Shown here: piece after piece, positions 24,427 through 59,776 of the stretch
How positions within the stretch are numbered: the first letter of the stretch is position 1
How the letters are laid out: each line of letters starts with the position of its first letter
Assembly (NCBI GenBank): GCA_964539025.1
Contig: CAZIFA010000009.1
Coordinates: forward strand, 14,554-78,553
Reading direction: 5' to 3'
DNA length: 64,000 nucleotides
DNA from: an uncultured Micavibrio sp.
GTDB taxonomy: Bacteria > Pseudomonadota > Alphaproteobacteria > Micavibrionales > Micavibrionaceae
Translations under genes and position numbers: made by a program
The notes under the pieces: generated by a model
Databases searched by the model: none
What the model was told of the DNA's origin: nothing
What the model saw: only the letters and a program-made list of their open reading frames with translations

Positions 24427-25272
24427 TCACTTTTCCCCACAGGTGATCTCAACCACCCTCAGAACCCCTGCCATATCGCGGTATGATTCTCGTGGAGTCA
24501 TATTAGATTCGCCCACGAGTCGTGACAAGGCCTCTTCTTGCCCTTTGCCGATTTCGAATAGTGCACGCCCGCCACACACCAAATGATTTTTGATCTTCAT
24601 CAGAATATTTTTATACGCCTCAAGCCCCGAGTCTCCCCCGCTCAGCGCCAGCCTTGGATCGTGATTCCGCACCTCTACAGCCAGGGATTCGATATCGGAT
24701 TCGGGGATATAGGGCGGATTCGAGACGATCAGATCGAACGATTCATCGGCACTCAACGGATCAAACCACGAGCCGCAGCGAAATTCCGCCCGGGATTCGA
24801 CGCCGTGATGGATAGCGTTTTCACGTGAAATGGCAACCGCGCCCGGATTTATGTCTACCCCTACGCCGGTGGCGTTCGGCAATTCGGCCAAAAGGGTGAT
24901 CAGAATGCAGCCCGTCCCGGTGCCTAGGTCGAGGATACGCAGCGCCGGTTTTTTCAACGCGGCGTCGATAAGCGTTTCGGTGTCCGGTCTTGGATCCAGA
25001 GTATCGGGCGAAAGGCGGAACATCCGGCCATAGAATTCACGCCCCCCCAGTATGCGCGAAACAGGCTCCCCCGCCACCCGGCGATCCACGAATTTCTCAA
25101 TGGTTTCAATCTGTTGCACCGATAGGGGGGTCTGGCCCATCGTGATAAGGTCGGAATCGGAGAAATTACCCCCCTGCCGCACCAAAATCCGCGCATCCAG
25201 CACCGGATTTTCGATGCGGCCAGCCTCTAATTTCTGGCGCATCCTGCGCTGTATTTCGTCCAAAGTTTCCAT
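24427..25272 (-). CDS. prmC: release-factor glutamine methyltransferase PrmC (HemK)
   Basis: 'DLGTGTGCI' SAM motif and 'VSNPPY' catalytic motif. ATG 25272 gives 281 aa. The longer ORF to 25536 runs through a repeat element. Confidence 0.85.
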   Translation of the reverse strand: METLDEIQRRMRQKLEAGRIENPVLDARILVRQGGNFSDSDLITMGQTPLSVQQIETIEKFVDRRVAGEPVSRILGGREFYGRMFRLSPDTLDPRPDTETLIDAALKKPALRILDLGTGTGCILITLLAELPNATGVGVDINPGAVAISRENAIHHGVESRAEFRCGSWFDPLSADESFDLIVSNPPYIPESDIESLAVEVRNHDPRLALSGGDSGLEAYKNILMKIKNHLVCGGRALFEIGKGQEEALSRLVGESNMTPRESYRDMAGVLRVVEITCGEK

Positions 25273-25398
25273 GCGAAGTTCTAGCCTTTTGTACGAAATT
25301 CTGTCTAGTTCGTTCCGCGCCTTTTGAAAACAAAACGCGGCCATTGTTTTTCGTAATATGGTTTTTAAAGGGCGCAGCGAAGCTGCGCACGTTTTTGT

Positions 25399-25428
25399 GG
25401 ACTGGACCCCCGCCTTCGCGGGGGTGAC
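25399..25428. repeat. Partial C-type hairpin element
   Basis: GGACTGGACCCCCGCCTTCGCGGGGGTGAC has the same CCCCCGC..GCGGGGG hairpin and TGAC end as the elements at 43462 and 59790. Confidence 0.5.
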
Positions 25429-25529
25429 AGGGGTAGAAGTAAGGTTGGGGCTTGGCGGCGGGAAAGGGCATCTATAGATCATAGGACAAAATTCCTGTTT
25501 TGGCCAGAAAAATCGCCCACCTCGCCACA

Positions 25530-25558
25530 TTGACATAACTTAGATATGCTGATAGGTC
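25530..25558 (+). promoter_or_regulatory. TTGACATAA box upstream of ORFan
   Basis: TTGACATAA at 25530-25538. The -10 is weak (ATAGGT/TAGGTC at 25552-25558). Confidence 0.3.
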
Positions 25559-26403
25559 TGCTTTATAACAAGCCTGCAAGAGTAAATATAATGAGTTCCC
25601 CCACCCCCCTCGCTGCAACCGCATGGCCCAAAAGATGGACAAATTTTCTTATGGGCGGGGATCATAAGAAGCGCGATTTTGTTTATTTCCTGATCAGCTC
25701 CGCGCGAGGTAACGAAGAGTGGATTAGTACGATTGCCAAGAACGTTATAGGCACGTTGCCACACATCGCCCTGCAAAACGGTGAGAATGCTGCTCTCGGC
25801 ATAATAGAAACCCTGATGGCCAACATTCGGCACGAGCGTACCAGAGACAAGGCCGTCGCCGATATTGCATACACATTTAGTAAGGTAACCGGTGCAGAGA
25901 GAAGCAGACTGCAACTTACCCTCTTTTCTATAACGGGCATTTTGAGAGAGGATATTTTTAAATCCATTCCCGTTATCGTTGGCCGCTCCCCTGACGCCGC
26001 ATATGACATGCTAAAACTCATTTTTGACCGCAACACGGCCGATGGCCCGATTTTAGCCACCAATTTCGCCAAAACCGCTCGTGTAACAAGTCCCTGCTAT
26101 ATGCACGCTTATATGAGTTGGTTTATTCCCGTGCGCTGCGGCAACACAACCGCAATCATGCACACACAACAATGGTGCGATCCGAATAAGGATCTGCCCA
26201 GAGATATGGAAGCCTGGAGGCTCCTCAAGCGCATCAAAGGCGATTGGAACAATATCAACCCAACCGGCAGGGCACATTACATGGATGTCAAAAGACATTA
26301 CAGCAACATCGAAGCCGTTCTTCTTGGCAGGAAAACACCCGAAGAAGGCGCACGCGCGATTCAAAAGAAAACCGGCGCGGATTATAGAGCGTTGGTGATT
26401 TAA
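25546..26403 (+). CDS. hypothetical protein (ORFan)
   Basis: Longest ORF is 285 aa. If the TTGACATAA box is the promoter, the real start is ATG 25591 (MSSPTPL). The C-terminus is '...KKTGADYRALVI'. Confidence 0.5.
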   Translation: MLIGLLYNKPARVNIMSSPTPLAATAWPKRWTNFLMGGDHKKRDFVYFLISSARGNEEWISTIAKNVIGTLPHIALQNGENAALGIIETLMANIRHERTRDKAVADIAYTFSKVTGAERSRLQLTLFSITGILREDIFKSIPVIVGRSPDAAYDMLKLIFDRNTADGPILATNFAKTARVTSPCYMHAYMSWFIPVRCGNTTAIMHTQQWCDPNKDLPRDMEAWRLLKRIKGDWNNINPTGRAHYMDVKRHYSNIEAVLLGRKTPEEGARAIQKKTGADYRALVI

Positions 26404-26533
26404 AATATTCCCGGAGGAAAACCTCCCCCATAGGGAGAAGAAGCATCTAGATTCTTTTTCACCACGAAGCACCAAATATTGACATAATGCATGCAACTTT
26501 AACAAGGCTTCGGATAACCATCAGAACGTTTTG

Positions 26534-26562
26534 TTGACATAACCATCTATCAAGATTAGATA
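26534..26562 (+). promoter_or_regulatory. Sigma70-like promoter with TTGACATAA box
   Basis: TTGACATAA at 26534-26542, a 17-nt spacer, then TAGATA at 26557-26562. A second TTGACATAA lies at 26479-26487. Confidence 0.4.
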
Positions 26563-26615
26563 GAAACAACCGCTGAAATAAACAAATCCAAGAGTATGTC
26601 TGAGAAAGAAAAATT

Positions 26616-28055
26616 ATGACCGAAGCACAATCCTTTTCCCCCACAACCCAGTCCCCCGCCGCGTTCATTCAAAGCGGATGGCAGCTTCTTCCCCTCTTTG
26701 CAAAGAAAATGGGCCAAGAATATGCCCAGGCAACTTTTGAGGCGATGTTGTTTTTAGCAAAACGCAATCCTGAGCTGATGCCGGGTTTTGTAAAGACCGG
26801 TCTTGCGTTCGCCCGCGACAATCAGTTTCTAAGAGATTCTATAATTAGAAATCTTATAGATGTGTCTTACGAGCACCCGGCATTTATACCGGATGTCGTC
26901 AAAGCCGGATGGCTTACAATGGCCTCCATTAAAAATCACGGCGGCACTGAAGATTCTCTGCGTTATGAAGAATCTCGCCGCGTTACCGATTTAGGCAGTG
27001 AACTATTGGAAATAGTCAAAGAGAAGCCCAAATTTTTGCCAATTTTTATTGAAGAAGGTTTAAAGAGCCTGCCACGCCTTGCAAATTCTCACAAAGCAAG
27101 CGTTCAGATATCAGTTAATCTCTTGCTGGAAGCTGTCGATTCTTATCCGCAGGCCATGCAAGATGTCGTCGAAGGCACACTGAACATTGTGGCCAGAAAT
27201 GCAAAACAACTTCCCCTTGCCTATTCATGGATCATTAGCGGCGTGGCGGAAGATGCGCAAAAATATCCAGAATTGATGCCCGGCATTATTGAGGCCGCAA
27301 AGCCCGTCATTAAAAGCTTAGGCGAAGTTGACCCTGCTGAGGATCGCGCAAAAAATTTCATTCAGAAATTGGTTCAATATACCAAGGATCAACCAGAATG
27401 CCTCGCCAACCTCGTTGGAACCGGCATAGAAATCCTGCCGGACGTTACAACAAGACATCGTTCTGCCGGCGAACGATTGTTTGCTTCATTGCTAGAGACC
27501 GCAAAAAATCATCCATCCTTGTTGCCAAGCGTTATCAAGGCCGGATGGCAAGGTTGCATGCCACATCTCGCGGGAGGTATCATGTTTACACAGTTGTCTG
27601 CAGACATGCTGAGAATCGCACAAACGGATGAGGCGGCGCGAACCGCCCTGATTGAAGGGCTCCGCAGCGCCATTCCGCTTATCGCGCAAGAAAACAGATG
27701 GAGCGTTCGACCTGCGCTCATGACCTTACAAAGCGCGATGGGGTTGGACAATGAAAGAAAGCTGGTAAGCGCTGAATTCGCCTTATCAACCCGGGGGCGC
27801 GCAAATAATAAACAAGAAATCTGGTATGTGCCGTTCAAGGGCAACAGGACCCTTGTTGCAACACAGGATTTCTGCGGCCCTGTTTCCGATCCGGACTTTA
27901 AAAGGCGCGTTCCAAATTTTGAAAGAGTTGAACAAGAAGCTTTAATATTGGGCCGTGTCTTTAACCGCAGAATTACGACACAGGCAGGCGTGACGGAAAT
28001 TCGTAAGACCACGAATAGCAGATTCCGCGCGCTCGATCTTGATAAGGTGGCTTAG
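26616..28055 (+). CDS. hypothetical alpha-solenoid repeat protein (ORFan)
   Basis: 479 aa with about seven 45-50-aa repeats: 'NPELMPGFVKTGL', 'HPAFIPDVVKAGW', 'KPKFLPIFIEEGL', 'YPQAMQDVVEGTL', 'YPELMPGIIEAAK', 'QPECLANLVGTGI' and 'HPSLLPSVIKAGW'. Confidence 0.6.
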   Translation: MTEAQSFSPTTQSPAAFIQSGWQLLPLFAKKMGQEYAQATFEAMLFLAKRNPELMPGFVKTGLAFARDNQFLRDSIIRNLIDVSYEHPAFIPDVVKAGWLTMASIKNHGGTEDSLRYEESRRVTDLGSELLEIVKEKPKFLPIFIEEGLKSLPRLANSHKASVQISVNLLLEAVDSYPQAMQDVVEGTLNIVARNAKQLPLAYSWIISGVAEDAQKYPELMPGIIEAAKPVIKSLGEVDPAEDRAKNFIQKLVQYTKDQPECLANLVGTGIEILPDVTTRHRSAGERLFASLLETAKNHPSLLPSVIKAGWQGCMPHLAGGIMFTQLSADMLRIAQTDEAARTALIEGLRSAIPLIAQENRWSVRPALMTLQSAMGLDNERKLVSAEFALSTRGRANNKQEIWYVPFKGNRTLVATQDFCGPVSDPDFKRRVPNFERVEQEALILGRVFNRRITTQAGVTEIRKTTNSRFRALDLDKVA

Positions 28056-28111
28056 CGGAAAAGGCATCAAGACGGCGCGGAATATAAAGCGCTGGAGATT
28101 TAGAAAAATTT

Positions 28112-28184
28112 AAACCACAGAGGCACAGAGACACAGAGTTTAAGAACACCCTGAATTTCTCTGTGCCTTTGTGTCTCTGTGGTT
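28112..28184. repeat. Repeat family F hairpin (CACAGAG words)
   Basis: AAACCACAGAGGCACAGAGACACAGAG ... CTCTGTGCCTTTGTGTCTCTGTGGTT. Confidence 0.75.
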
Positions 28185-28218
28185 AAAATAAATGCCTGCG
28201 GGCCTTAAAAACAATATC

Positions 28219-28299
28219 GTCATTCCGAACCCTTTACGGGTGAGGAATCTTTGACGGAACCGGACAGGCCAAAGATCCCTCACATACGTTCGGAATGAC
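28219..28299. repeat. Palindromic element family B, copy 1 (81 bp)
   Basis: GTCATTCCGAAC...GAGGAATCTTTG...GGCCAAAGATCCCTC...GTTCGGAATGAC. Related to the copy at 39300. Confidence 0.8.
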
Positions 28300-28318
28300 G
28301 GGATAGCCATCCTGCGAA

Positions 28319-29206
28319 TTAATGATACTGCCGCATCGTTCCCGGCTGAGCGGCGCCCCGTTTTACACGTGCGTCCCTCTCCGCCTTTTTCAGCATTTCC
28401 ATTGCCTTAAGCGAATCCAAAAATCCATCGCATACACCTAGGCTATGGCGACAATCCTTCAAATTCGATTCAATGGTTGCAAAGTTCGTTCTAATGAATC
28501 CCGGTGCGAATTCAGGGTTGGGCGTTTCGATGAAATAGGCGAAACCCAGATCAGCGTCGATTGCGTTCATACGCAGGGCGGCACATCTGTTGAATGCATC
28601 CGCACCGCGCAAAGACGCTTCACGGTTGATCTCGTTGTAGATGGCGCGATCCATATCAACAACAATATGCGGCGTTACATTTTCACAAAACACGGAATGG
28701 CCGGAATGAACGGGCGTACCTATAGACATTCCCAGATCAGTCGATCGTTGTTTTATGTACGACAATTTCTTATCCAGACGGTCATGCTCCGCTTTCGTCA
28801 TCTCTGCCCCTTCCTTACAATCCGCAGCCGTATCCAAATATTCCTGTCTTTGTGCGTCATCGGCAAAGCCAAACCGTTTATAATGGTTTGCTATCGTGTC
28901 TGTGAAAGCTTGTTCCAACCGCATAACGACCTTTAAAATATCCCGGGCATCGGTCATGGCGGCAAACACCATTCTTGCATTATTCGTTCTGTAGGTTTGA
29001 TAAGCTTTCAGCAACGTGTTGTAAGGGATCGATGATTTTCGTGCGGAAGGGCAATCATAGATTTGGGCACATGCGTTCGCGTTCACCTGATCAACCACAG
29101 AAGGAGTGTGAAAATGGTGTTTGATCGACCCGATCATACCTGACTGCAGTTTCGCCCTTGATTTCAGGACTTCATTTATTTTAACCCGTGCATCTAAATC
29201 CAACAT
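28319..29206 (-). CDS. hypothetical protein (ORFan)
   Basis: 295 aa. It starts 18 nt after the prfA stop, so it is probably co-transcribed with prfA. No domain recognised. Confidence 0.55.
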   Translation of the reverse strand: MLDLDARVKINEVLKSRAKLQSGMIGSIKHHFHTPSVVDQVNANACAQIYDCPSARKSSIPYNTLLKAYQTYRTNNARMVFAAMTDARDILKVVMRLEQAFTDTIANHYKRFGFADDAQRQEYLDTAADCKEGAEMTKAEHDRLDKKLSYIKQRSTDLGMSIGTPVHSGHSVFCENVTPHIVVDMDRAIYNEINREASLRGADAFNRCAALRMNAIDADLGFAYFIETPNPEFAPGFIRTNFATIESNLKDCRHSLGVCDGFLDSLKAMEMLKKAERDARVKRGAAQPGTMRQYH

Positions 29207-29224
29207 AGCAAACTCTTTTCATTG

Positions 29225-30289
29225 TTAAACTTCCAGATTGGCCAATTGTTCCGCCTGCGCCTGGGTGATCAGCGCGTCGATGACTTCGCCGAGGCCCGAT
29301 CCGTTCATGATCTGATCGAGGCTATAGAGCGTTAGATTGATCCGGTGATCGGTTAAACGGCTTTGCGGAAAATTGTAAGTGCGGATACGTTCCGAACGAT
29401 CGCCCGAACCGATCTGGCCTTTGCGATCCGCCGCACGCGCGGAATCTATTTTCTGGCGTTCCATATCATAAAGGCGTGTTTTCAAAAGGCTCATGGCCCG
29501 CGCCTTGTTCTTGTGCTGGGATTTTTCTTCTTGGATGGCGACCGCAAGCCCGGTCGGAATGTGCGTGATGCGCACGGCGGAATCGGTGGTGTTGACAGAC
29601 TGACCGCCGGAACCTTGGCTGCGGTACACGTCGATGCGCAAGTCACTCTCATTGATCACGATATCGACGTCTTCGGCTTCAGGAAGCACGGCGACGGTGG
29701 CGGCGGAGGTGTGGATGCGCCCTTGTGTTTCGGTTTTGGGGACGCGTTGCACGCGGTGGCCGCCGGATTCATATTTCAGTTTGGCGAAGACGTTGCTGCC
29801 CGAAATATTCGCGATGATTTCTTTATACCCGCCAAGATCGGATGACGACATTTCGATGATTTCTACGCGCCAGCCCTGAATCGACGCGTAGTTTTTATAC
29901 ATGGTGAACAGGTCGGCAGCGAACAAAGCGGCTTCGTCCCCGCCCGTTCCGGCGCGGATTTCTATCACGGCGTTTTTAACGTCGGCGGAATCTTTGGGCA
30001 GAAGCGAGATTTTTATTTTTTCTTCAAGCGCGGGGATTTTTTCCTTCAGTTCATTCAATTCGGCCTGCGCCATTTCGCCCATGTCGGGATCATCGAGCAT
30101 TTCAAGCGCGCCCGCTTTGTCATCCATCGCTCTTTTATATTCGAGATAGAGTTCGACGACGGGTTGCAGTTCGGCATATTCCTTGGACAGCTTGACGAAG
30201 GCGTCGCCCGATAAGCCGCCCGCCGACATCTTGTCGCTCACGTCTTTATGCCGCGCCGCTATAGGCGCCAGTTTTGCGAGGTAATCCAT
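29225..30289 (-). CDS. prfA: peptide chain release factor 1
   Basis: 354 aa. GGQ motif ('[24 protein letters not shown]'), '[15 protein letters not shown]', and the PxT-type RF1 layout. Confidence 0.95.
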
Positions 30290-30341
30290 GGGCTTTTTAA
30301 TAAGCGGTATTGCGTTGTTTTGACAAGCCTATTCGCTTTTA

Positions 30342-30370
30342 TTGACATAACGTTATGTGAATGTTATGGA
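30342..30370 (+). promoter_or_regulatory. Sigma70-like promoter with TTGACATAA box and embedded palindrome
   Basis: TTGACATAA at 30342-30350, a 17-nt spacer, then TATGGA at 30365-30370. ACATAACGTTATGT (30345-30358) is a perfect 14-bp palindrome. Confidence 0.45.
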
Positions 30371-30401
30371 AGGGGCGGTTTATTAAGCTCTGGGCATTTT
30401 T

Positions 30402-31298
30402 ATGGGTACATTTGCGCTGAAAAAAACGTTCGGTCCCGCCGCGATTCCACGGGATGTCAGCACGCCAGAAAACGCCCGCATCGTGCGTGAGATTTTTTCC
30501 CTAATGACCAATAGATTTACCCCTTTTAATTTAGAAGGCACGAGCTTCGTATTTAAAGAACATCTAGGCGCAGATGCAGCCAACGGTACAACCGGTTTCT
30601 TTCGGCATAGCGCCGTGATGCACCCTCTTATAAATTCGCTGCATGTCGCAGCACGTGGCCGCACTGCCCCTATTCGTATTCTTGCAGCCCCTTCATCCGT
30701 CGGCTGCGAGGCATATACGCTCTCTGCAGTGGCCTGTGCATCCGGAATCTCACAAATGCGTGATTTCAGAATCGATTCATTTGATCGATCTGAAACCTTT
30801 ACCGCGCTGGCAAGGCTTGGCGCATATCCACGCGAATTGTCTGAACATCTCTTCAGAAAGAAAAATGGCGCGCTTTTCTCGTCCACAGAAAACGAAATTG
30901 TTTACGTGCGAAACGATGTCAAAAGTAATGTACGCTTTCTTGACCCTCAGGGCATCGAAAATTTTGTTCCGCAAGAACGTTATAATGCCATCATGCTTAA
31001 TAACCTGTTCATGTACCTCAACGAAGAGCAGCAAGATAAAGTTATCGACTTTATCAAAGACAGCGAAGCAGATATTGTAATCATGACCAGCGATGATAAC
31101 GCACCGGTAACGATTCCGCGCTCGCTTCCCTATGTTCCGCTTAAAAACCATCCGGATTGGCAAGACAGCAGCCTCGCCCGTGCTGACCTGATGAGCTATT
31201 ATATCTGGGCGCGGAGCCAACCCGGTGCTAATTATGCGCCGACAGTCTGGCCGTCCAGTTATTATCATAGAAGTTGCAAGCCGCGAGTTCGCCCGTGA
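30402..31298 (+). CDS. CheR-like SAM-dependent methyltransferase (orphan)
   Basis: 'FFRHSAVMHPLI', 'IRILAAPSSVGCEAYTLS' and 'FRIDSFDRSETFTALARLGAYP' parallel the CheR motifs FFRD / RIWSAGCSTGEEPYS / ATDIS..A..G.Y. There are no chemotaxis genes nearby. Confidence 0.6.
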   Translation: MGTFALKKTFGPAAIPRDVSTPENARIVREIFSLMTNRFTPFNLEGTSFVFKEHLGADAANGTTGFFRHSAVMHPLINSLHVAARGRTAPIRILAAPSSVGCEAYTLSAVACASGISQMRDFRIDSFDRSETFTALARLGAYPRELSEHLFRKKNGALFSSTENEIVYVRNDVKSNVRFLDPQGIENFVPQERYNAIMLNNLFMYLNEEQQDKVIDFIKDSEADIVIMTSDDNAPVTIPRSLPYVPLKNHPDWQDSSLARADLMSYYIWARSQPGANYAPTVWPSSYYHRSCKPRVRP

Positions 31299-31920
31299 GC
31301 GGCACTTTGAGCGTTTCGGCATAGTTGTTTAAAGGTTTGCACCATATGCTTTGGGCTAGATCAGGAATATCGCGAAAATCTTCACGGGCGTTATCGCTAT
31401 ACTTGATGTAATCCTGCACGATTTGCGCCTGTTGTTCGAGCCCATATTGTTCGAACGGTCTGCCCAGTGAATAAGAATAGAGGCCATCATTATTGAAGGC
31501 GTAGTTCAAAATATTCTGCGCGCCGAGCGCATGGACGTTCGTTCCATGCTGGAATTGTTTTGCATGCATCAGTTCATGCATGATAAAGCCGCGATAGTAA
31601 CGCCCGGGCTGAACCGCGTAATCAGATTTCCATGTCCGGTCGGAGTAAACGTAAATATTCCCGTCCGGCGTCATGGTGTGCGTGAACAAGCGCATAGGCG
31701 AATACGGGCGGTAAATAATGCGCACCCTGTCATAATCGATCGTGTCCGCAAAAACCGTTTTCGCCAGCGCGATTTCGTTGGCGGTGAGTTTGCGGCAGGT
31801 AATTTCAGCGGCGCATAAAGAATCGTTCGGTATTTGGGAAAGCTGATCGGGCGGCAACGTGCTAGCACACGCAGTCTGAAAACACAGCACCAACCCCACA
31901 AGCCGTCTTTTATAAGACAT
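31228..31920 (-). CDS. secreted/lipoprotein zincin-like protein ('vgr-related protein' type)
   Basis: ATG 31920 (MSYKRRLVGLVLCFQTACAS). 'LTANEIALAKTVFADTIDYDRVRI' plus the 'IMHELMHAKQ' HExxH motif. Paralog of 31980..32681. Confidence 0.6.
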   Translation of the reverse strand: MSYKRRLVGLVLCFQTACASTLPPDQLSQIPNDSLCAAEITCRKLTANEIALAKTVFADTIDYDRVRIIYRPYSPMRLFTHTMTPDGNIYVYSDRTWKSDYAVQPGRYYRGFIMHELMHAKQFQHGTNVHALGAQNILNYAFNNDGLYSYSLGRPFEQYGLEQQAQIVQDYIKYSDNAREDFRDIPDLAQSIWCKPLNNYAETLKVPLTGELAACNFYDNNWTARLSAHN

Positions 31921-31966
31921 GGCGATATATCCCTTGATCAGGATATAGACAATCATGGGTATGGGT

Positions 31967-31975
31967 TTATGTCAA
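31967..31975 (-). promoter_or_regulatory. TTGACATAA box (minus strand)
   Basis: Exact 9-mer on the minus strand, 47 nt upstream of ATG 31920. The -10 is not convincing. Confidence 0.3.
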
Positions 31976-31979
31976 CGCG

Positions 31980-32681
31980 CTATTGAGGGGCCAGCGCTTC
32001 AGGTCTGGTACAAAATGCAAGATCGCCCGCGAGCGAAATATTTAAAATTTGGGCGTACTTGCGCACGCTGAAACACCAGAGATTCTTTTGATCCTCATTT
32101 TTATCATTTGCAACCTCGCGCGCATTATCGGCGTACCAGATAAATTTTTGTACGATCTGCGCCTGTTGCTCAACGCCTTGCTCCTCAAACGGTGTAATAG
32201 TTGAAGGTTCATACGAACTTTTGCGATCAACCAAGCGCGTGACAAAAGTTTGAACAGGATTGTCATTCCTAGATTTTACAATGCCCTGCTTTTGAGCCTT
32301 ATGGGTAAGTTCATGCATAATCATTGGCCGCGCACGGCCATCGAATTTAATGGCGTAGTCGGCCTCCCAGCTTTTCATGGAGTGTATATAAATATTTCCA
32401 TCCGCCGGAACGGAAGCATCTGAAAACATAGCGTGGATTGAATACGGGCTGTAAATAACGCGGACCTCATCGTAGTTGACGGGGCCTTTAAATTTATCGG
32501 ATTTTTCAAAGACGCTTTTCGCCAAGGCAATTTCATTGTCGGTGAGCTTGCGGCAATAGGTTTCGCCAGCGCAGCGAGGGTCGTCCGGTTTTGATGGCGG
32601 AGCTTGATCAGGCGCAAAACTGGCGCACGCGCCCGCCTGAAAGCAAACTGCCAAACCCGCCAAAATTCTTTTATAAGACAT
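31980..32681 (-). CDS. secreted/lipoprotein zincin-like protein, paralog
   Basis: 'MSYKRILAGLAVCFQAGACAS', 'LTDNEIALAKSVFEKS...YDEVRVIY', 'IMHELTHKAQ', and a shared C-terminal 'EQQAQIVQ.(F/Y)I.Y(A/S)DNARE' block. Confidence 0.6.
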   Translation of the reverse strand: MSYKRILAGLAVCFQAGACASFAPDQAPPSKPDDPRCAGETYCRKLTDNEIALAKSVFEKSDKFKGPVNYDEVRVIYSPYSIHAMFSDASVPADGNIYIHSMKSWEADYAIKFDGRARPMIMHELTHKAQKQGIVKSRNDNPVQTFVTRLVDRKSSYEPSTITPFEEQGVEQQAQIVQKFIWYADNAREVANDKNEDQKNLWCFSVRKYAQILNISLAGDLAFCTRPEALAPQ

Positions 32682-32707
32682 AGTGTTATACCCGCTTTAA
32701 GGGGTAT

Positions 32708-32736
32708 ACATAATCATAATGTGTATATTATGTCAA
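32708..32736 (-). promoter_or_regulatory. Sigma70-like promoter with TTGACATAA box
   Basis: Minus strand reads TTGACATAA, a 17-nt spacer, then TTATGT. It lies 27 nt upstream of ATG 32681. Confidence 0.4.
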
Positions 32737-32782
32737 TATTAATCATGATTTCTAACCCCTTAGAAATCGTGGGATTTAGGCC

Positions 32783-32842
32783 GCCATTCCCCGACTTGTT
32801 CGGGGAATCCAGACTGGATACTCCGCCTTCGCGGAGTATGAC
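32783..32842. repeat. Palindromic element family C, copy 1
   Basis: GCCATTCCCCGACTTGTTCGGGGAATCCAGACTGGATACTCCGCCTTCGCGGAGTATGAC. About 85% identical to the copy at 38238. Confidence 0.8.
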
Positions 32843-33335: not shown

Positions 33336-33344
33336 GAGCATAAG

Positions 33345-51419: not shown

Positions 51420-51421
51420 CC

Positions 51422-51739
51422 ATGGCAAAGCCGAAAGCATTGACCGACAAAGCCGTTAAAGACGGCGTTAAAAAAATTCCCGGCTGGTCATACAAAGGCG
51501 GCAAGATCACTGCCGATTATAAATTCGCGGATTTTCGCGAAGCGATGGGTTTCATCACGCAGGTCGGAATTACCGCCGACAAGGCCGACCACCATCCCGA
51601 AATTTACAATGTGTACAACAACGTGACCTTCAAGCTTTCGACCCATGACGCGGGCGGAAAGGTCACAAAAAAGGATATGGACCTTGCGCGCGAGATAAGC
51701 GGCATTGCGTCCAAAATCCTGCGCAAAGGCAAGGCATGA
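51422..51739 (+). CDS. 4a-hydroxytetrahydrobiopterin dehydratase (PCD/DCoH)
   Basis: 'GFITQVGITADKADHHPEIYNVYNNVTFKLSTHDAGG' contains the PCD HHP motif. ATG 51422 chosen because the ORF-track start 51416 is TTG. Confidence 0.85.
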   Translation: MAKPKALTDKAVKDGVKKIPGWSYKGGKITADYKFADFREAMGFITQVGITADKADHHPEIYNVYNNVTFKLSTHDAGGKVTKKDMDLAREISGIASKILRKGKA

Positions 51740-52466: not shown

Positions 52467-52555
52467 CCCCCCATCCAAACCTTCCCCCGCAAGGGGGGAA
52501 GGCTTTTGCCTCAGTAAAGTCCTCCCCCCTTGAGGGGGAGGATTTAGGTGGGGGG
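52467..52555. repeat. Repeat family E copy between ftsE and ftsX
   Basis: CCCCCC..CCTTCCCCCGCAAGGGGGGAAGG..TAAAGTCCTCCCCCCTTGAGGGGGAGGATTTAGGTGGGGGG. Confidence 0.75.
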
Positions 52556-53615: not shown

Positions 53616-54218
53616 ATGGTTTTCAAACTTTTCGCATATTGTTTCACCGCTTTATTCACGCTCCTTTTGCTTTGGGGGCTTGGATGGATGTGGTTCGCGG
53701 CGTCAGTGGTCGTTGCCAAGCCGCAAATGCCCGATCAACGCACAGACGCCATCATCGTCTTAACCGGAGGCGACAAACGCGTGAACACCGGGCTCGATCT
53801 CCTGGCAGATGACAAGGCAAAATTTTTGTTCATCTCCGGCGTCAATGCAAAAGTGAAACCGGAAGAATTGATCGCGCTGTGGCGCGGCAACCACAAAAAA
53901 GTTCTTTCGCGCATTACGCTGGGCTACACCGCCGATAGCACGGCAAGTAACGCCATCGAAAGCGAAGAATGGATCAAGAAAAAAGATATCCATTCCGTTC
54001 GCCTTGTCACCGCCAATTACCACATGGCACGGTCCATGCTGATGTTTCACGAAGCGATGCCGGATATAGAAATCGTCAAGCACCCCGTCGTGCCGGCAGA
54101 TTTCGAGCCGTGGAAAGAACAATTCTGGCCGCTGACATTTCAGGAATACAATAAATTCCTCGCGGCATGGCTACGGCTCGACCTGATGAATAAAAATCCC
54201 GAACTGGAAAAAAGATAA
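53616..54218 (+). CDS. YdcF/DUF218 family protein
   Basis: N-terminal TM helix, 'AIIVLTGGDKRV' and 'VRLVTANYHMARS'. Paralog of 8343..8954. Confidence 0.75.
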   Translation: MVFKLFAYCFTALFTLLLLWGLGWMWFAASVVVAKPQMPDQRTDAIIVLTGGDKRVNTGLDLLADDKAKFLFISGVNAKVKPEELIALWRGNHKKVLSRITLGYTADSTASNAIESEEWIKKKDIHSVRLVTANYHMARSMLMFHEAMPDIEIVKHPVVPADFEPWKEQFWPLTFQEYNKFLAAWLRLDLMNKNPELEKR

Positions 54219-54220
54219 TC

Positions 54221-54979
54221 ATGGTCTATATCCGATCCATTTTATTCAATATACTGTTTTATGGCGTATGGACACCGTTCGTCTGCCTTGCCATGCTGCC
54301 ATCACTCATCATGCCACGAAAATTTACAGTCGCCGTTGCCGCGATGTATCAATACGGCGTCTATCTTCTGGCCAAATATATTGTCGACCTAGATTTCGAA
54401 GTACGCGGGCGTGAATATCAGCCTGCGCGCGGCCAGCCCTATCTCATCGCCGCCAAGCATCAATCGGCGTATGAAACGCTGCTGCTCTATCAATTGTTCA
54501 GCGATCCGACCATCATTTTGAAAAAAGAGCTGCTTTCGATTCCTGTATTTGGCTGGTTTCTCAAAAAACTCGATGTTATTGCGATAGATCGCGGCAAGCG
54601 ATCTTCTGCCGCAAATTCATTATATGAAGGTGCGAAGCGGATGCGCAAAGACGGCCGCCCCATCGTCATTTTCCCGCAAGGCACGCGCGTGCGGGTGGAC
54701 GCAACCTCTACCGAAAAACCGTACAAAAGCGGCATTACCAGACTTTATACCGCCGTTGAACTGCCAATCCTTCCCATGGCCATCAATACGGGGCTATACT
54801 GGCCGCGCAACAGTTTTTGGAAATATCCGGGCAAGGCGATCATAGAATTTCTGCCCCTGATCCCGGCAGGATTACCGGAAGACGAAGTTTTGAAAAAGCT
54901 GGAAACAGATATTGAGGCAGCATCGAACCGTTTGATGGCGGAAGGTAGAAAGTCCTCTCCCTTCAGGGAGAGGATTTAG
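54221..54979 (+). CDS. plsC: 1-acyl-sn-glycerol-3-phosphate acyltransferase
   Basis: 'AAKHQSAYETL' (HX4-acidic block) and 'IVIFPQGTR' acyltransferase motifs. The last 9 codons and the TAG stop lie inside repeat E. Confidence 0.8.
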   Translation: MVYIRSILFNILFYGVWTPFVCLAMLPSLIMPRKFTVAVAAMYQYGVYLLAKYIVDLDFEVRGREYQPARGQPYLIAAKHQSAYETLLLYQLFSDPTIILKKELLSIPVFGWFLKKLDVIAIDRGKRSSAANSLYEGAKRMRKDGRPIVIFPQGTRVRVDATSTEKPYKSGITRLYTAVELPILPMAINTGLYWPRNSFWKYPGKAIIEFLPLIPAGLPEDEVLKKLETDIEAASNRLMAEGRKSSPFRERI

Positions 54980-55042
54980 GTGAGGGCCCTCCCACACGTT
55001 TTTTTGGCCCTCACCCCTTCCCTCTCCCTAAAGGGAGAGGGA
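54951..55042. repeat. Repeat family E copy overlapping the plsC 3' end
   Basis: AGTCCTCTCCCTTCAGGGAGAGGATTTAGGTGAGGGCCC...GGCCCTCACCCC..CCCTCTCCCTAAAGGGAGAGGGA. Confidence 0.8.
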
Positions 55043-55055: not shown

Positions 55056-55844
55056 ATGAGCAATAAATTTAAAATCGCGCTGTGCATCGCCTTTTTCGTT
55101 TTAGGCCTGACCTATGTGTCATTGTGGGTCTATAGCGCAAAATGGTTCCAGCATGAAATCGATAATCTTTACGCCAACGCGACAAAAGAAGGCGTCGAAT
55201 TTTTGGGCGAAAAACCGACCCTGAGCAATTTCCCTTTCGTGCCCGTCGTCACCTATAGTAACGGCATAAAAACAGGTAACGCGGCAATCATTTTCCCCAA
55301 ACTGGAGATACGCGGATACCCCATTCCCTTCACCACCTTATCGTTGAATTTTCCGCAAGGCATCGCGCTGAACGGCATTGCCGATCCAGCTATCTGGTCG
55401 CTCGACGCGCTAAAAGCGGAACTCGCCGTGCCATATCATCTACCCGCTGCTTTCACGGCGGAAGATTTGACGCGCTGGCGCAACCACGACGGTAAGATCG
55501 ATGTACGTCACTACGCCCTGCAAAAAGGATCGCTTATTTCCGATGGCAAAGGGCTTTTGCAGTTGGATAAAGATTTACAGCCCGTGTTTTTCATGGAAAG
55601 CAATGTGCGCGGCTATGATGCGTTTATCGCCGAACAAAAAGAAAAGGATTTGATCGATCCGTTCGCGGCGGCCGTGGGCGCGACCATCCTCAACGGCCTT
55701 GCACAAGACAACAAGGACGGGCAAAAAACCGTGACGGTGCGGGTTAGCGTTGAGAACCGGCTTTTGTCGGTGGGGCCGCTACAGGTACTTGATCTGCCGA
55801 AGATTGTTTGGGATACGCGTAAGACGCCTGACCGGCATCTATAA
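55056..55844 (+). CDS. membrane-anchored hypothetical protein (possibly DUF2125)
   Basis: N-terminal TM helix 'IALCIAFFVLGLTYVSLWVY'. The position after plsC matches my recollection of alphaproteobacterial DUF2125 genes, but the family call is not verified. Confidence 0.45.
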   Translation: MSNKFKIALCIAFFVLGLTYVSLWVYSAKWFQHEIDNLYANATKEGVEFLGEKPTLSNFPFVPVVTYSNGIKTGNAAIIFPKLEIRGYPIPFTTLSLNFPQGIALNGIADPAIWSLDALKAELAVPYHLPAAFTAEDLTRWRNHDGKIDVRHYALQKGSLISDGKGLLQLDKDLQPVFFMESNVRGYDAFIAEQKEKDLIDPFAAAVGATILNGLAQDNKDGQKTVTVRVSVENRLLSVGPLQVLDLPKIVWDTRKTPDRHL

Positions 55845-56697
55845 TCGCCCGGCGGATATCCCGCGTCTCTTTAAATTTGTTATAAAGATAATCCCCGTCC
55901 GATTTGCGGATAGCCTTTTGCATGGCGGTTAAATCTTCACTGAACCGTTGCAAAATTTCCAGCACCGCGTCTTTGTTGTTCAAGAACACGTCGCGCCACA
56001 TGACGGGATCGGATGATGCGATGCGCGTGAAATCCCGGAAACCTGATGCCGAAAATTTAATGACTTCGCCCTTTAAATCTTCTTCCATATCCGTTGCCGT
56101 GCCGACGATTGTGTAGGCGATCAGGTGCGGCAAGTGCGATGTGATGCCGAGCACGAGATCATGATGTTCGGCGTCCATGATTTCGATGTTAGATCCGCAC
56201 GCTTCCCAGAATTTGGTCAGTTTCTCGACCACGCGCAATTCAGTGTGGCGCAGCGGCGTCAAGATACACCATCTATTCTGGAACAATTCGGCAAAGCCTG
56301 CTTCCGGCCCGGAATGTTCCGTCCCCGCGATCGGATGACCGCCGACAAGGTGAACTTTCGCGGGCAGTTTTGGTTGCAATGCCTTGATAACAGAAGTTTT
56401 AACCGAACCGACATCGGTGACGATGGAATCGGGTTCCAGTGCTAGGGCAATTTTATCGGCAACCGCGCCCATCGCGCCGACCGGAACGCATAAAATGATA
56501 AGGTCGCTGCCCTTCACACCCTTGGCAAGGTCGGTGAAGATTTCATCCGCGATGCCGAGCGATTTGACCTTCTCGCACACTTCGCGCGATTGATCGGCAC
56601 AGATGATTTTTCCGGCCAAATTGTTTTGTTTGATCGCGCGCGCGAGCGACGAGCCGATCAGGCCAAAACCTATAATGGTAACTTGTTTGAACATCAT
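55744..56697 (-). CDS. tyrC: prephenate/arogenate (cyclohexadienyl) dehydrogenase
   Basis: 'VTIIGFGLIGSSLARA' NAD motif and 'GGHPIAGTEHSGP' catalytic block. Confidence 0.85.
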   Translation of the reverse strand: MMFKQVTIIGFGLIGSSLARAIKQNNLAGKIICADQSREVCEKVKSLGIADEIFTDLAKGVKGSDLIILCVPVGAMGAVADKIALALEPDSIVTDVGSVKTSVIKALQPKLPAKVHLVGGHPIAGTEHSGPEAGFAELFQNRWCILTPLRHTELRVVEKLTKFWEACGSNIEIMDAEHHDLVLGITSHLPHLIAYTIVGTATDMEEDLKGEVIKFSASGFRDFTRIASSDPVMWRDVFLNNKDAVLEILQRFSEDLTAMQKAIRKSDGDYLYNKFKETRDIRRAIIDAGQASYAYPKQSSADQVPVAAPPTKAGSQR

Positions 56698-56730
56698 AAT
56701 GTCTTTCTACTATACAATTATTTTATCTCT

Positions 56731-56873
56731 GTCATCCCCGTGGCGCCCTGCGTAGCTCGAAGAGCGAAGCATGGGCTGGCACGACGGAGATCCATAATGT
56801 GAGCGGCAAAGCTGCTCTTCTTTTTCCGGATACCCGCCGTTGGTCTCTGCCTTCGGCAGAGCGCGGGTATGAC
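56731..56873. repeat. Degenerate/composite GTCAT...ATGAC element(s)
   Basis: It starts GTCATCCCCG and ends CGGGTATGAC, and contains the hairpin CTCTGCCTTCGGCAGAG. It lies directly upstream of the tyrC ATG. Confidence 0.45.
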
Positions 56874-57069
56874 AACTATGTGATTGAAACGTCAAAATAC
56901 CTGCCCTAGAGGGCATAATAGAGGGCAGCGGTGAGGCCGTAGGCGGCAAAAGCGCGGGTCATAGGCCCTAAATACGTGCTTTAGGGGGTAAAAGCCAGAA
57001 AAACTTGATTTTGTATATTCATAATGCTAGCGATTACGCCTTGCATTAACATTAACCGAAAGTATTCCA

Positions 57070-57528
57070 ATGTCCGCCATTCAATTTACGCCAGCGCAAA
57101 AAGCCGCAGCACGCCAGATCGTCTTATCCTTTCCTTTCGATACGAAGCATAGGGAAGGCTTGTTATCCGTCATTGAAAATCCGGGCCGTCCAAACCTGAT
57201 GACAACGGTCGACGTGTTTGCAGATGCGGCCCGCGCCTGCCCGAATGCGGCCCCAGCCCTGAAAGCCATCAGCGGCGAAATGGGAACCCCGTTAAGCCCG
57301 GAAACGGAAACATATTTGCTGAATCATATAAATGCATTTTTCCCTTCTGATGCCGAGCGCGCGGAGATGCTGGAATCCATGCCGTACCAGACCGAAGAAA
57401 GCGCCAATGCGCTAATGGAAAGCTTGAGATTACATTGGGATAACATTCACCAATCTCAGCAGCAGCGCCGCCAGCTGCTGGCACTGCCTCACAACGGCGC
57501 CATGGTTAAAGCACTACGGCTACGGTAA
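57070..57528 (+). CDS. hypothetical protein (152 aa)
   Basis: ATG-started ORF with no recognised domain. Confidence 0.45.
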   Translation: MSAIQFTPAQKAAARQIVLSFPFDTKHREGLLSVIENPGRPNLMTTVDVFADAARACPNAAPALKAISGEMGTPLSPETETYLLNHINAFFPSDAERAEMLESMPYQTEESANALMESLRLHWDNIHQSQQQRRQLLALPHNGAMVKALRLR

Positions 57529-57547
57529 CGTTACAACCAACAGAAAA

Positions 57548-57943
57548 TCACACCGGGGCGGGCGTGAGGCTGTTGTTAATGGCGTCTTGATTCAATCCCG
57601 GACGGAGCCAGGTAATTTTATCCGGCGTGAATCCGGCAAGATTCCTGAATATTTCAATCAATGTCTTTTGTATACTCGCCGACCCACCTTTGAAAGAGCA
57701 AAGCACTTCCGTTTGATTGTGTGCAGGCGCTACTGCGGTTTTATTCTGGAGAAGAGAAAAATGATGGCCGTTAACCTCGAACGACTGGCCGAGATTCCGC
57801 CCTTCACGATGATCAAATTGAGCACTCACATCTGCAACCGGGAAACCATGCGCCTTGGACAAAAAATCAAGCGTAAGATCGATCCGCGCTGCCAGAACGC
57901 CATCGGCTATCAGTTTCTCCGGTAAATCTAAAACTTTTATCAT
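57548..57943 (-). CDS. ORFan paralog family Z, member 3
   Basis: 'GRNLGQSFEVNGHHFSLLQ' and C-terminal 'WLRPGLN'. Paralogous to the two genes upstream. Confidence 0.5.
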   Translation of the reverse strand: MIKVLDLPEKLIADGVLAARIDLTLDFLSKAHGFPVADVSAQFDHREGRNLGQSFEVNGHHFSLLQNKTAVAPAHNQTEVLCSFKGGSASIQKTLIEIFRNLAGFTPDKITWLRPGLNQDAINNSLTPAPV

Positions 57944-57951
57944 TAGAATTC

Positions 57952-58302
57952 CTATAAGTTCAGCCCCGGTCTAACCCAACTGAGATGTTTTCCCGCCAGA
58001 CGAAGATCATCCAATATAACTTCCAAGCTGTCGCTCATATCGCGTTTGGTGCCGAGTGCAATTACGATATTTGTATATTTGTTGGTAGGCTCTGGCGCCT
58101 GTGTGAATTGGATAAGGGAAAATTGTGTCCCTGCGCTGCTTTGAAAAGTTTGCCCAAGAGCGTGGCCAAGTCCATCGCCTATTTCTGTGGCATTCACCAC
58201 TTGAAATTTTCTTTGTTGGGCTAGCTTTAAGATTGACCGATCAATGGTGGCCACGGTTTCGTAATTGGCTTTGACTTTTTCTGCTTCTGGTAAAACACGC
58301 AT
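57952..58302 (-). CDS. ORFan paralog family Z, member 2
   Basis: 'GHALGQTFQSSAGTQFSLIQ' and C-terminal 'WVRPGLNL'. Confidence 0.5.
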   Translation of the reverse strand: MRVLPEAEKVKANYETVATIDRSILKLAQQRKFQVVNATEIGDGLGHALGQTFQSSAGTQFSLIQFTQAPEPTNKYTNIVIALGTKRDMSDSLEVILDDLRLAGKHLSWVRPGLNL

Positions 58303-58316
58303 TGCAATACTCCTTA

Positions 58317-58661
58317 TTAAATTAATTTTAACCGTGGACTGCCGAGATCTTGCAAGATAACACCCAGATGCTCTTGCATAACCGCCGGATCGGCTTCGTC
58401 AATGAAAACTTCGGTGCTGTTGTTGAGGGGCGATGGGGCCACCGTATAACCGCGAAGAAAGTATGGCACCCCAGCACTGCTGATAAACGCCCGACCAAGG
58501 GCGTGGCCATGGACTTCGCCGTAACGGCCTTCCGGCGTTGCGTTCACCAGATCGAATTTCAGCCGCTTGGCAATATCCGTGATTTTTTCATCAATGATAG
58601 CGATCCGAAAAGTTTGGCTAATAACTGCGGTCGCAGGTCTTTCCATTGTTAAAACGGGCAT
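58317..58661 (-). CDS. ORFan paralog family Z, member 1
   Basis: 'GHALGRAFISSAGVPYFLRG' and '(L/F)(K/Q)F(D/Q)(L/V)VNAT' shared with member 2. It starts 32 nt after the hisC stop. Confidence 0.5.
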   Translation of the reverse strand: MPVLTMERPATAVISQTFRIAIIDEKITDIAKRLKFDLVNATPEGRYGEVHGHALGRAFISSAGVPYFLRGYTVAPSPLNNSTEVFIDEADPAVMQEHLGVILQDLGSPRLKLI

Positions 58662-58693
58662 ATCATACTCTCCTGATTTCCAGAATAACTCAC

Positions 58694-59776
58694 CTAAATA
58701 GACAAATACTCTTTTATCGCGGAACAGGCAAGATTCATCTCTTCCCCCGTTCCGATGGAAATCCTTAATGATTCCGGCAGTTTATAAGCCCCCATCTGGC
58801 GGACGAGGATACCGCGACCCTTTAAATAAGCCCGGCAGCCATCGGCCTGCGCCTCATCCTTAAAGGACACCAGCACGAAATTCCCGGCGCTGGGCCAGAC
58901 TTTTACGCGATTGGAAGACAATTCTTTCACCGTCCATGCGCGCCATTCGGTGTTGTGGGAAACCGAGCGTTCGATGAACGCATCGTCGCCAAGTGCGGCG
59001 ATCCCCGCCACCTGTGCAGGCACCGACACGTTGAACGGCCCGCGCACGCGGTTCAGAATATCGGCGACATCGGCGGGGCAATAACCGTAGCCGAGCCGCA
59101 ATCCCGCGAGGCCGAAAATTTTCGAAAACGTGCGGAGCACGACGATATTGTCGGACGCTCTCGCCATCGCAAATCCGTTTTCGTAGCCCGGCGTGGCGGA
59201 TGCGTATTCGGCATAAGCGTCATCAAGCACCAGCAGGATATCTTCACGCAGCGAGCTTCGGAATTTTTTGATATCAGCCGGTTTGTTAAAACTGCCCGTC
59301 GGATTGTTCGGGTTGGTCAGGAACACGATCCGCGTTTTTGGCGTGACGGCGGCGAGCATCGCATCCAGATCAGGCGTTAAATCCTTTTCCGGCGTTTCAA
59401 CACAAACCCCGCCGCATGTTTTAGCGAAGATGCCGTACATCAAAAAAGAATGTGCGGCGTATATGACTTCATCTCCCGGCGCGACATAGGCTTTGCACAA
59501 TAGACCGATAATTTCATCAGACCCCGCGCCGCAGATGATGCGGTTTTCTTCGAGTCCAAATTTCGCGGCGATGGTTTTGCGCAACTCACCGCAATTGCCA
59601 TCGGGATATTTTTCCAAATGCAGATCGTTCGACAATGCCTGCAATGCTTTGGGCGACGCTCCGAACGGATTTTCGTTGGACGACAATTTTATGATGCGCG
59701 TGGCGCCTTCGACCTTGCTCTCCCCGCCGACATAGGCCGCAATATCAAGAATGCCGGGGTTAGGTTTGATTTTCAT
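58694..59776 (-). CDS. hisC: histidinol-phosphate/aromatic aminotransferase
   Basis: 'KLSSNENPFG', 'LTNPNNPTG' and 'RTFSKIFGLAGLRLGY' (PLP-lysine) are class II aminotransferase motifs. ATG 59776 chosen because the ORF-track start 59782 is TTG. Confidence 0.9.
   Translation of the reverse strand: MKIKPNPGILDIAAYVGGESKVEGATRIIKLSSNENPFGASPKALQALSNDLHLEKYPDGNCGELRKTIAAKFGLEENRIICGAGSDEIIGLLCKAYVAPGDEVIYAAHSFLMYGIFAKTCGGVCVETPEKDLTPDLDAMLAAVTPKTRIVFLTNPNNPTGSFNKPADIKKFRSSLREDILLVLDDAYAEYASATPGYENGFAMARASDNIVVLRTFSKIFGLAGLRLGYGYCPADVADILNRVRGPFNVSVPAQVAGIAALGDDAFIERSVSHNTEWRAWTVKELSSNRVKVWPSAGNFVLVSFKDEAQADGCRAYLKGRGILVRQMGAYKLPESLRISIGTGEEMNLACSAIKEYLSI

Follow-up and report, generated by a model that had tools for sequence, protein, structure and literature searches.

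Half of all accessory-gene hotspots are free of mobile elements and 27% carry neither integrases nor transposases, and recombination at the core genes flanking them has been proposed to act at such sites (Oliveira et al., 2017; PMC5635113). For Micavibrio, the genome paper on M. aeruginosavorus ARL-13 reports only large islands of 11–27 kb that bear integrases and are often adjacent to tRNA genes (Wang et al., 2011; PMC3189940). Here, we describe a 64,000-nucleotide stretch of DNA from an uncultured Micavibrio sp. (GenBank assembly GCA_964539025.1, contig CAZIFA010000009.1, positions 14,554–78,553), referred to as the window and numbered from its own first base. It probably represents an ancestrally compact run of housekeeping genes whose junctions have come to hold accessory islets (0.5–4 kb) of different ages and free of mobile elements. 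Micro-islets of this kind appear to be undescribed so far for the Micavibrio group.

We collected 80 genome loci around ispG and mapped the window proteins onto them. In L001, L002, L004, and L005, which are Micavibrio-like loci, ubiG|lysC-rodZ-ispG-prfA-prmC-DUF4167-clpB forms a single compact run throughout. Among alphaproteobacterial loci, the gap between ubiG and lysC is below 400 bp in 45 of 46 (including the relatives L081 and L084), compared with 1915 bp in the window; the same holds for rodZ|ispG in 51 of 67 loci (3442 bp in the window) and for prfA|prmC in 38 of 47 (3952 bp). The gatA|gatB gap is below 200 bp in 46 of 59 loci and measures 2369 bp here, and hisC and tyrC, spaced by 170 bp in L167 and 620 bp in L166, are 1996 bp apart. 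An earlier, sequence-only reading of this DNA had named these five pairs as normally adjacent. The ancestral adjacency is borne out for every pair, that of lysC and ubiG included, and each carries extra genes in the window. A sixth broken junction of 3.5 kb, ispG|prfA (30290–33778), was missing from that list, and smaller additions are found between rodZ and lysC (39407–39955), behind gatB (SET and DUF218 genes), and at 960–1313. No insert gene has a homolog (E < 0.01) lying less than 10 kb from ispG in any of the 80 loci, whereas core genes found matches in 48–80 of them in the same mapping, so the interruptions are real; so many broken adjacencies in a single genome are unusual among relatives. 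The hisC-tyrC pair itself is not invariant within the clade, since L168 (a 1.16-Mb Micavibrio sp. contig, positions 8859–10951) lacks hisC in the interval from the chorismate mutase gene to tyrC.

Composition sets the inserts apart from their surroundings. The sequence-only reading had proposed comparing the two, and the insert genes are indeed AT-richer than the core genes, with a GC content of 48.8% versus 53.1% and a GC content at third codon positions (GC3) of 52% versus 61% (Mann–Whitney p about 1e-8). GC3 is core-like in the old insert genes, namely those for the EamA transporter, the K+ channel, and the Cys-rich protein at gatA|gatB, a pattern that would fit acquisition followed by amelioration. 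The reported absence of mobility genes from the 64 kb holds, with no integrase, transposase, recombinase, conjugation, or phage domain found by Pfam in any of the approximately 77 open reading frames (ORFs) of the window. Scans and tblastn searches of IMG/VR and of plasmid and phage collections gave no relatives of the ORFans. When the 150-bp stretches to both sides of each insert border were compared, shared direct or inverted words were no longer than in shuffled controls (longest words 6–10 nt; null mean about 8, maximum 11–13), and the terminal inverted repeats and target-site duplications of transposons, insertion sequences, or miniature inverted-repeat elements were not seen at the borders.

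Comparison with relatives revealed inserts of mixed age, with turnover in both copy number and content. An old insert, conserved across Micavibrio-like genomes, is that of gatA|gatB: its Cys-rich gene stands at the same junction in L086–L089 (25–48% identity; GatB 74–89%) and its EamA transporter is present in L086 (59%). The AAA_33 kinase gene of that junction is absent from L086–L089 and is window-specific there. At rodZ|ispG, the genus-level relatives L081 and L084 (IspG 93.5%, RodZ 63–70%) have just the K+ channel in common with the window (52–62%), and at prfA|prmC both hold genes different from those seen here. In L081, an AAA ATPase gene occupies ispG|prfA, and prfA|prmC has a Trypsin_2-like protein with a 199-residue ORF; in L084 the ispG-prfA gap is 8 bp. 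L169 (IspG 95%, RodZ 92%) has a rodZ|ispG islet with one paralog (74%) versus three in the window, alongside the K+ channel (87%) and the gene downstream of it (61%). L171 (UbiG 77%) shows the order ubiG, the box TTGACATAA described below, P0271 (48% identical), and then the next paralog, with the first paralog missing. The ispG|prfA islet of L172 (PrfA 92.6%) holds one zincin (80%) and two extra genes, together with two tandem CheR-like genes (2122–3849 of that locus) that are 41–42% identical to the single one of the window at 30402–31298. The promoter region upstream of the CheR-like gene is 88% identical between the two, which points to replacement or strong diversification of the gene behind a conserved promoter. 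Turnover of the islets proceeds through tandem duplication or loss and through gene replacement.

Synonymous (dS) and non-synonymous (dN) divergence from the nearest relatives was estimated by the Nei–Gojobori method. Most islet genes gave dS values of 0.5–0.77, close to the 0.59–0.65 of three core genes (IspG, RodZ, and PrfA), which indicates vertical inheritance together with the flanks since the split from the nearest relatives; the K+ channel at rodZ|ispG (1.0) and a ubiG|lysC paralog (1.25) lie above the core range. The rodZ|ispG, ispG|prfA, and ubiG|lysC islets were thus inherited vertically once in place. The dN/dS ratios of islet genes (0.21–0.38) are well below 1, so these are real genes under purifying selection, with non-synonymous evolution three to six times faster than that of their core neighbours (0.06–0.07 for IspG, RodZ, and PrfA; UbiG has 0.18 and the K+ channel 0.08). 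The gain of accessory cassettes proposed by the sequence-only reading agrees with sister lineages that carry different, non-homologous genes or none at the same junctions. The inserts are not uniformly recent gains, given the old gatA|gatB insert and the core-like dS of the shared islets. Conserved gene order with orthologs of all ORFans in close relatives, named there as what would speak against the claim, was encountered for part of the inserts.

A nine-nucleotide box, TTGACATAA, is shared by several islets, as had been claimed. It occurs in eight exact copies against 0.33 expected (a number reached by 0 of 100 shuffles), all of them in islet-associated intergenic DNA, oriented towards an islet gene, and 47–82 bp before its probable start. 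One-mismatch variants are not enriched, and the box is found once in about 111 kb from genus-level relatives. The box is kept at the orthologous ubiG|lysC promoter of L171 and at the zincin and CheR promoters of L172, and a variant, TTGACGTAA, is kept at the rodZ|ispG promoter of L169. An origin from the ancestral lysC promoter was considered and rejected: the ubiG-lysC intergenic regions of relatives contain no TTGACATAA, so the box came or evolved with the islet. It resembles a sigma-70 –35 element extended by three bases and is putatively a promoter element, with weak candidate –10 hexamers nearby (TATGTC, TAGATA, TATGGA, and TTATGT). At the CheR-like promoter (30342–30361) the box lies within the inverted repeat TTGACATAA-cg-TTATGTGAA, and several boxes are followed about 16–17 bp downstream by a TTATGT- or TATGTC-like sequence resembling the reverse complement of the box; the combination hints at a palindromic operator. 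The description of the cassettes as self-promoted suits the several islets with a promoter-like box of their own and does not extend to all, since no box accompanies the hisC|tyrC paralogs, which follow hisC on its own strand at a distance of 32 bp.

Hairpins of the type GTCAT...ATGAC were the other feature said to be common to the cassettes, at or near their borders. These are palindromic dimers of 60–85 nt (GTCAT, stem-loop, GATC..GATC, stem-loop, ATGAC), with at least 11 full copies in the window (2005, 28219, 33661, 38238, 39300, 44930, 45992, 48245, 49640, 53537, and 62743); the elements listed at 28219, 33661, and 38238 exist, and only half-elements lie near 25405 and 56731. A narrow pattern, GTCAT-N3-30-ATGAC, gave a single chance match, and a wider one was used for the family. 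The palindromes form a dispersed family as frequent in core as in islet intergenic DNA (7 versus 7, p = 0.79), and the idea that they mark insertion borders was rejected on that count. A near-identical trio (2005–2069, 44930–44994, and 48245–48309) stands between core genes throughout, the second member between those for the beta and alpha subunits of the electron transfer flavoprotein (ETF). The 65-nt subfamily is expanded in this genome and absent from relatives, and in about 110 kb of close relatives no element of the family as a whole occurs. The palindrome at 32782 also belongs to the family. The hairpins are a generic family similar to repetitive extragenic palindromes (REPs). They resemble the alphaproteobacterial CGTC-tagged REPs (Di Nocera et al., 2013; PMC3733652), which are reported in M. 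aeruginosavorus, in being short, intergenic, mostly downstream of genes, multicopy, and free of an associated transposase; they differ in forming head-to-head dimers of 60–85 nt and in carrying TGTC rather than CGTC at 19 of 22 ends. The two may be related. Two further palindrome families occur, one of the form CCTCTCCC...GGGAGAGG (9671–9809, 52467–52555, and 54954–55040) and one rich in CACAGAG (17266–17337 and 28108–28189). Upstream of rodZ, L169 has an element of the CCTCTCCC...GGGAGAGG type where the window has one of the GTCAT type.

Several other origins can be proposed for this arrangement. The inserts could be ancient core genes of the subclade, gained once and evolving fast, so that differences between genomes reflect differential loss and not recurrent gain. 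The breadth of the gatA|gatB Cys-rich gene, the K+ channel common to L081 and L084, and the core-like dS of the islet orthologs in L169, L171, and L172 would all be expected under such an origin, and paralogs within arrays are only 21–43% identical, so the families are old. We nevertheless regard it as unlikely. Sister genomes hold unrelated genes at the same junctions (the Trypsin_2-like protein, the AAA ATPase, and 239- and 199-residue ORFs), gaps in other relatives (8–170 bp) leave no room for genes, and ubiG|lysC is unbroken in all but one locus; the AAA_33 kinase, the paralog copy numbers, and the extra genes of L172 vary even among nearest relatives, and atypical GC3 is kept by the young islet genes and has ameliorated in the old ones. 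Birth of the ORFans from intergenic DNA lying downstream of strong promoters, whether de novo or through overprinting, would explain why very large databases hold no homologs beyond the immediate lineage and why the genes are short, AT-richer, and poor in codon usage. It appears highly improbable given the confident, folded models obtained from only 5–6 sequences (see below), dN/dS values well below 1, deeply diverged paralog families, one "ORFan" family that turns out to be a known toxin domain, and ancestral intergenic regions of merely 8–170 bp. The source is a contig of 79,964 bp from a metagenome-assembled genome (MAG), which would leave room for an assembly or binning artefact in the form of a chimeric contig. 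The independent Logan assembly L170 matches the window at 100% identity over 29690–38264 (8.6 kb), spanning two islets and their core flanks, so that misassembly is excluded, and relatives from other samples have islets at the same junctions; we give an artefact next to no credence.

Two further possibilities concern the box and the palindromes. A dedicated but unrecognised trans-acting system (integron-like without an integrase, or a REP with its associated transposase, RAYT), for which the palindromes or TTGACATAA serve as recognition sites, would account for an exact 9-mer common to islets at four loci and nearly absent from the backbone of relatives, for palindromes adjoining several islet borders (33661, 38238, and about 25405), for the palindrome subfamily expanded in this genome only, and for a CheR-like gene replaced while the promoter upstream of it is conserved. 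However, palindromes are no rarer between core genes, the ubiG|lysC and gatA|gatB islets have none, target-site duplications and terminal repeats are missing, the mixed gene orientation and own promoters are unlike those of integron cassettes, neither an integrase nor an HUH transposase occurs in the 64 kb, and the islets stay at the same sites with core-like dS in relatives; such a system is improbable. Another reading, to which we assign a low probability, treats TTGACATAA as the signature of a lineage-specific regulon of fast-evolving prey-interaction genes, read by a dedicated factor and not by plain sigma-70. Capture, duplication, and swapping of new genes would then occur preferentially downstream of such conserved promoter modules, the CheR-like replacement behind the 88%-identical promoter being a case in point, and the ubiG–clpB cluster would be a dedicated plasticity zone in Micavibrio-like predators. 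Accessory islets of different ages remain the explanation we favour, and several points weigh against it. Searches of sets of 5.8 and 1.84 billion proteins revealed no donor for any of the ORFan families, so that a horizontal origin is suggested by composition and phyletic pattern; low GC3 could also stem from weaker selection if the genes are young or lowly expressed. The comparison with nearest relatives covers the rodZ|ispG, ispG|prfA, and ubiG|lysC islets, an exact 9-mer with no enriched variants would suit recognition by a specific DNA-binding protein just as well as promoter function, and any predation-related function would follow from taxonomy and one homology.

The favoured explanation is that the ancestral ubiG|lysC-rodZ-ispG-prfA-prmC-DUF4167-clpB run, hisC-tyrC, and gatCAB were invaded at nearly every junction by lineage-specific islets. 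AT-richer DNA would have entered by illegitimate or homology-facilitated recombination at insertion-tolerant intergenic sites and would then have undergone local duplication, and homologous recombination in the conserved flanking genes may exchange islets between strains. Many islet genes would be expressed from their own sigma-70-type promoters with the invariant –35-region box TTGACATAA, and the REP-like palindromes would act as terminators or insulators genome-wide. The closest counterpart is the hotspot without mobile elements, or genomic islet (Oliveira et al., 2017; PMC5635113), with which the window has in common accessory genes of variable content between core genes that are adjacent in relatives, turnover, atypical composition, and no integrase, transposase, or other mobility gene. 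To call the mode of gain so far unexplained was consequently an overstatement, as hotspots without mobility proteins are documented there. The window differs in having many tiny islets (1–6 genes) at consecutive junctions of one cluster, where they split normally co-transcribed partners, and in the invariant promoter-like 9-mer shared by several of them. Clusters of attC sites lacking integron-integrases (CALINs) likewise combine small, functionally uncharacterised genes in arrays with nearby hairpin repeats and no local integrase, but the hairpins here are not cassette-associated, and the genes have their own promoters, lie on mixed strands, and are scattered between core genes instead of forming one array. 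Reading of the sequences, with no attC model run, found no attC-type sites, the palindromes ending in GTCAT/ATGAC; promoterless, co-oriented cassettes as in integrons were not found either, given mixed strands, promoter-like boxes, and no integrase domain. The islands of ARL-13, of the integrative and conjugative element (ICE) type (PMC3189940), resemble the islets as foreign-looking DNA with candidate prey-interaction genes in a Micavibrio genome, but the islets, 0.5–4 kb in size, sit between housekeeping genes without any mobility gene. Nor do they show the integrase, the tRNA-adjacent position, or the size above 10 kb of ICE or prophage islands; the sole tRNA gene of the window (Ser, at 10997) adjoins none of them. 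What is unusual is the islet density, with islets at all junctions of a six-gene ancestral cluster, together with the shared promoter-like box and the CheR-like replacement behind a conserved promoter. No new mobility or insertion mechanism is indicated, and the window is a dense example of a known pattern.

The contents of the islets were examined junction by junction. The window has a GC content of about 52%, about 77 plausible ORFs, and one tRNA-Ser, and an Rfam scan recovered the tRNA alone. All core gene names assigned by the sequence-only reading were matched by Pfam. The statement that the inserts have no recognisable domains was too strong, given Pfam matches to AAA_33, EamA, Ion_trans_2, and CheR and the similarity of a zincin pair to a VgrG2b domain; the tandem paralog arrays it had described are real. 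The ORFans gave zero matches in NCBIfam, PHROGs, and PADLOC, and sequence searches of the PDB returned nothing for the rodZ|ispG, ubiG|lysC, and hisC|tyrC families or for the three prfA|prmC proteins. Several ORF calls in the inserts look spurious (32714–33052, 33145–33504, 36091–36357, 37501–37734, and 56710–56949).

The ispG|prfA islet (30290–33778) lies between prfA (29225–30289) and ispG (33779–34918). Its CheR-like gene (30402–31298, plus strand; Pfam CheR, 5e-16) is followed on the minus strand by two tandem paralogs for zincin lipoproteins with an HExxH motif (31228–31956 and 31980–32681). A profile of this pair matched PDB 6H56, the VgrG2b effector domain, with E = 5.8e-15 and HELxH aligned to HEMTH, and the pair has 161 homologs, many annotated as "vgr related protein." The C-terminal domain of VgrG2b is a periplasm-acting antibacterial metallopeptidase toxin of Pseudomonas aeruginosa (Wood et al., 2019; PMC6899460). 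The similarity covers about 140 residues and takes in the HExxH motif, but the zincins here stand alone with lipoprotein-type signal peptides and are not fused to a VgrG spike, and the window contains no type VI secretion system (T6SS) domains; neither T6SS delivery nor a cognate immunity protein was found for the pair. The homology supports an effector-like role for this islet. Of the effector/immunity or host-interaction content that had been suggested for the inserts in general, effector-like proteins are thereby supported in at least one islet. Between 32690 and 33778 the better gene candidates are a probable gene at 32937–33287 (plus) and a small one at 33396–33548 (minus). TTGACATAA boxes lie at 30342 (plus), 31967 (minus), and 32728 (minus), and palindromes at 32782–32842 and 33661–33771.

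The islet between prmC (24427–25272) and prfA, at 25273–29224, holds three ORFan genes, at 25546–26403 (plus; true start probably near 25588), 26616–28055 (plus), and 28319–29206 (minus), with GC3 values of 0.48–0.54. The 479-residue product of the second has seven helical repeats of about 40 residues ending in (H/K/Y)P-x-h-h-P-x-h-h-x-x-G, and then a non-repetitive C-terminal region of about 170 residues. The three proteins have no match in Pfam, NCBIfam, PHROGs, PADLOC, or PDB, and their genes are absent from all 80 ispG loci. TTGACATAA boxes were located at 25530, 26479, and 26534, and palindromic elements at about 25405, 28108–28189, and 28219–28299.

Between ispG and rodZ (38361–39233), the islet at 34919–38360 holds the variant box TTGACGTAA at 34990 and three plus-strand genes for cytoplasmic paralogs (35033–35608, 35605–36057, and 36461–37027; 27–33% identical), followed by the K+ channel (37028–37501, minus), a membrane protein (37799–38203, plus), and a palindrome (38238–38298). 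Among 5.8 billion proteins, the paralog family has a single outside member, P0145. Its AlphaFold2 (AF2) model reached a predicted local distance difference test (pLDDT) score of 82, and Foldseek against the PDB gave nothing significant, with a best E of 6e-3 and template modelling (TM) scores of 0.25–0.3 to a generic ACT-like beta-alpha-beta fold. The small minus-strand islet between rodZ and lysC (39234–39954) contains a P-loop kinase-like gene (39407–39955, minus; Pfam AAA_33 and AAA_18; GC3 0.48) and a palindrome (39300–39384); the gene has no positional homolog in the 80 loci, L081, or L084.

The islet between lysC (39955–41190) and the gene for a UbiG-type methyltransferase (UbiG-like, 43106–43879) occupies 41191–43105 and consists of four tandem minus-strand genes for secreted paralogs (41210–41683, 41662–42093, 42096–42560, and 42557–43027) behind a TTGACATAA box at 43077 (minus), 20 bp off the ubiG start. 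Alignment of the paralogs revealed signal peptides, three invariant cysteines, and a fourth in most copies. Profile searches of 1.84 billion representatives retrieved just the four window proteins and P0271; a further match, P0270 (1343 residues), was rejected as spurious because its sequence is that of a eukaryote-like kinase and repeat protein. The AF2 model (pLDDT 71) has no significant Foldseek match in the PDB. The last paralog ends 19 bp from the lysC start (41191–41209), and lysC may now be transcribed from the putative TTGACATAA promoter of the islet or from one inside that paralog gene.

The islet between tyrC (55744–56697) and hisC (58694–59782) lies at 56698–58693 and has no TTGACATAA box. 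Three tandem genes for small cytoplasmic paralogs (57548–57943, 57952–58302, and 58317–58661, minus) are co-directional with hisC, and an additional gene (57070–57528) is on the plus strand. The paralogs are 28–43% identical by BLASTP (31–41% in the alignment), have a GC3 of 0.43–0.58, and like the additional gene lack any family or PDB match. None of these genes occurs in L166, L167, or L168, where hisC and tyrC are 170–620 bp apart or hisC is missing. A further variable junction was noted nearby: a pterin-4a-carbinolamine dehydratase gene (51416–51739), between 50646–51419 and an ftsE-like ABC ATPase gene, has no counterpart there in L166–L168, and L166 has an unrelated 173-residue ORF in its place.

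The composite plus-strand islet between gatA (about 2409–3904) and gatB (6274–7725), at 3905–6273, joins a lineage-specific AAA_33/zeta-toxin-like kinase gene (4086–4730; Pfam), the old gene for the secreted Cys-rich protein (4727–5257; GC3 0.60), and the older gene for the EamA transporter (5327–6256; Pfam; GC3 0.70), all on the plus strand. Two minor islets, both on the plus strand, stand near it. The one at 831–1693 holds an ORFan (960–1313, plus) with a TTGACATAA box at 900 and a Shine–Dalgarno sequence upstream; the ORFan has no Pfam match and no homolog in L086 despite conservation of both neighbours there. The one behind gatB (7726–8900) comprises a SET-domain protein (7739–8233) and a DUF218 paralog (8343–8954), both identified by Pfam. 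Neither has a homolog beside gatB in 80 metagenome loci, L086 included, and from this absence they would qualify as a minor islet. This second DUF218 copy is 24% identical to the one at 53616–54218.

The nearest named relatives of IspG and TyrC belong to Micavibrio sp. and M. aeruginosavorus MAGs, and this taxonomy suggests a predatory lifestyle for the source organism. The islets probably form a prey-interaction arsenal, and their content would represent a fast-evolving prey-interaction or envelope repertoire, to which the VgrG2b-type metallopeptidase lipoproteins and the arrays of secreted Cys-rich proteins and of small cytoplasmic paralogs would belong. The window offers an example of a small, highly syntenic genome of a likely predator that diversifies by micro-islets and not by large islands, and its islets give a short list of candidate predation and prey-interaction genes together with a testable regulatory motif.

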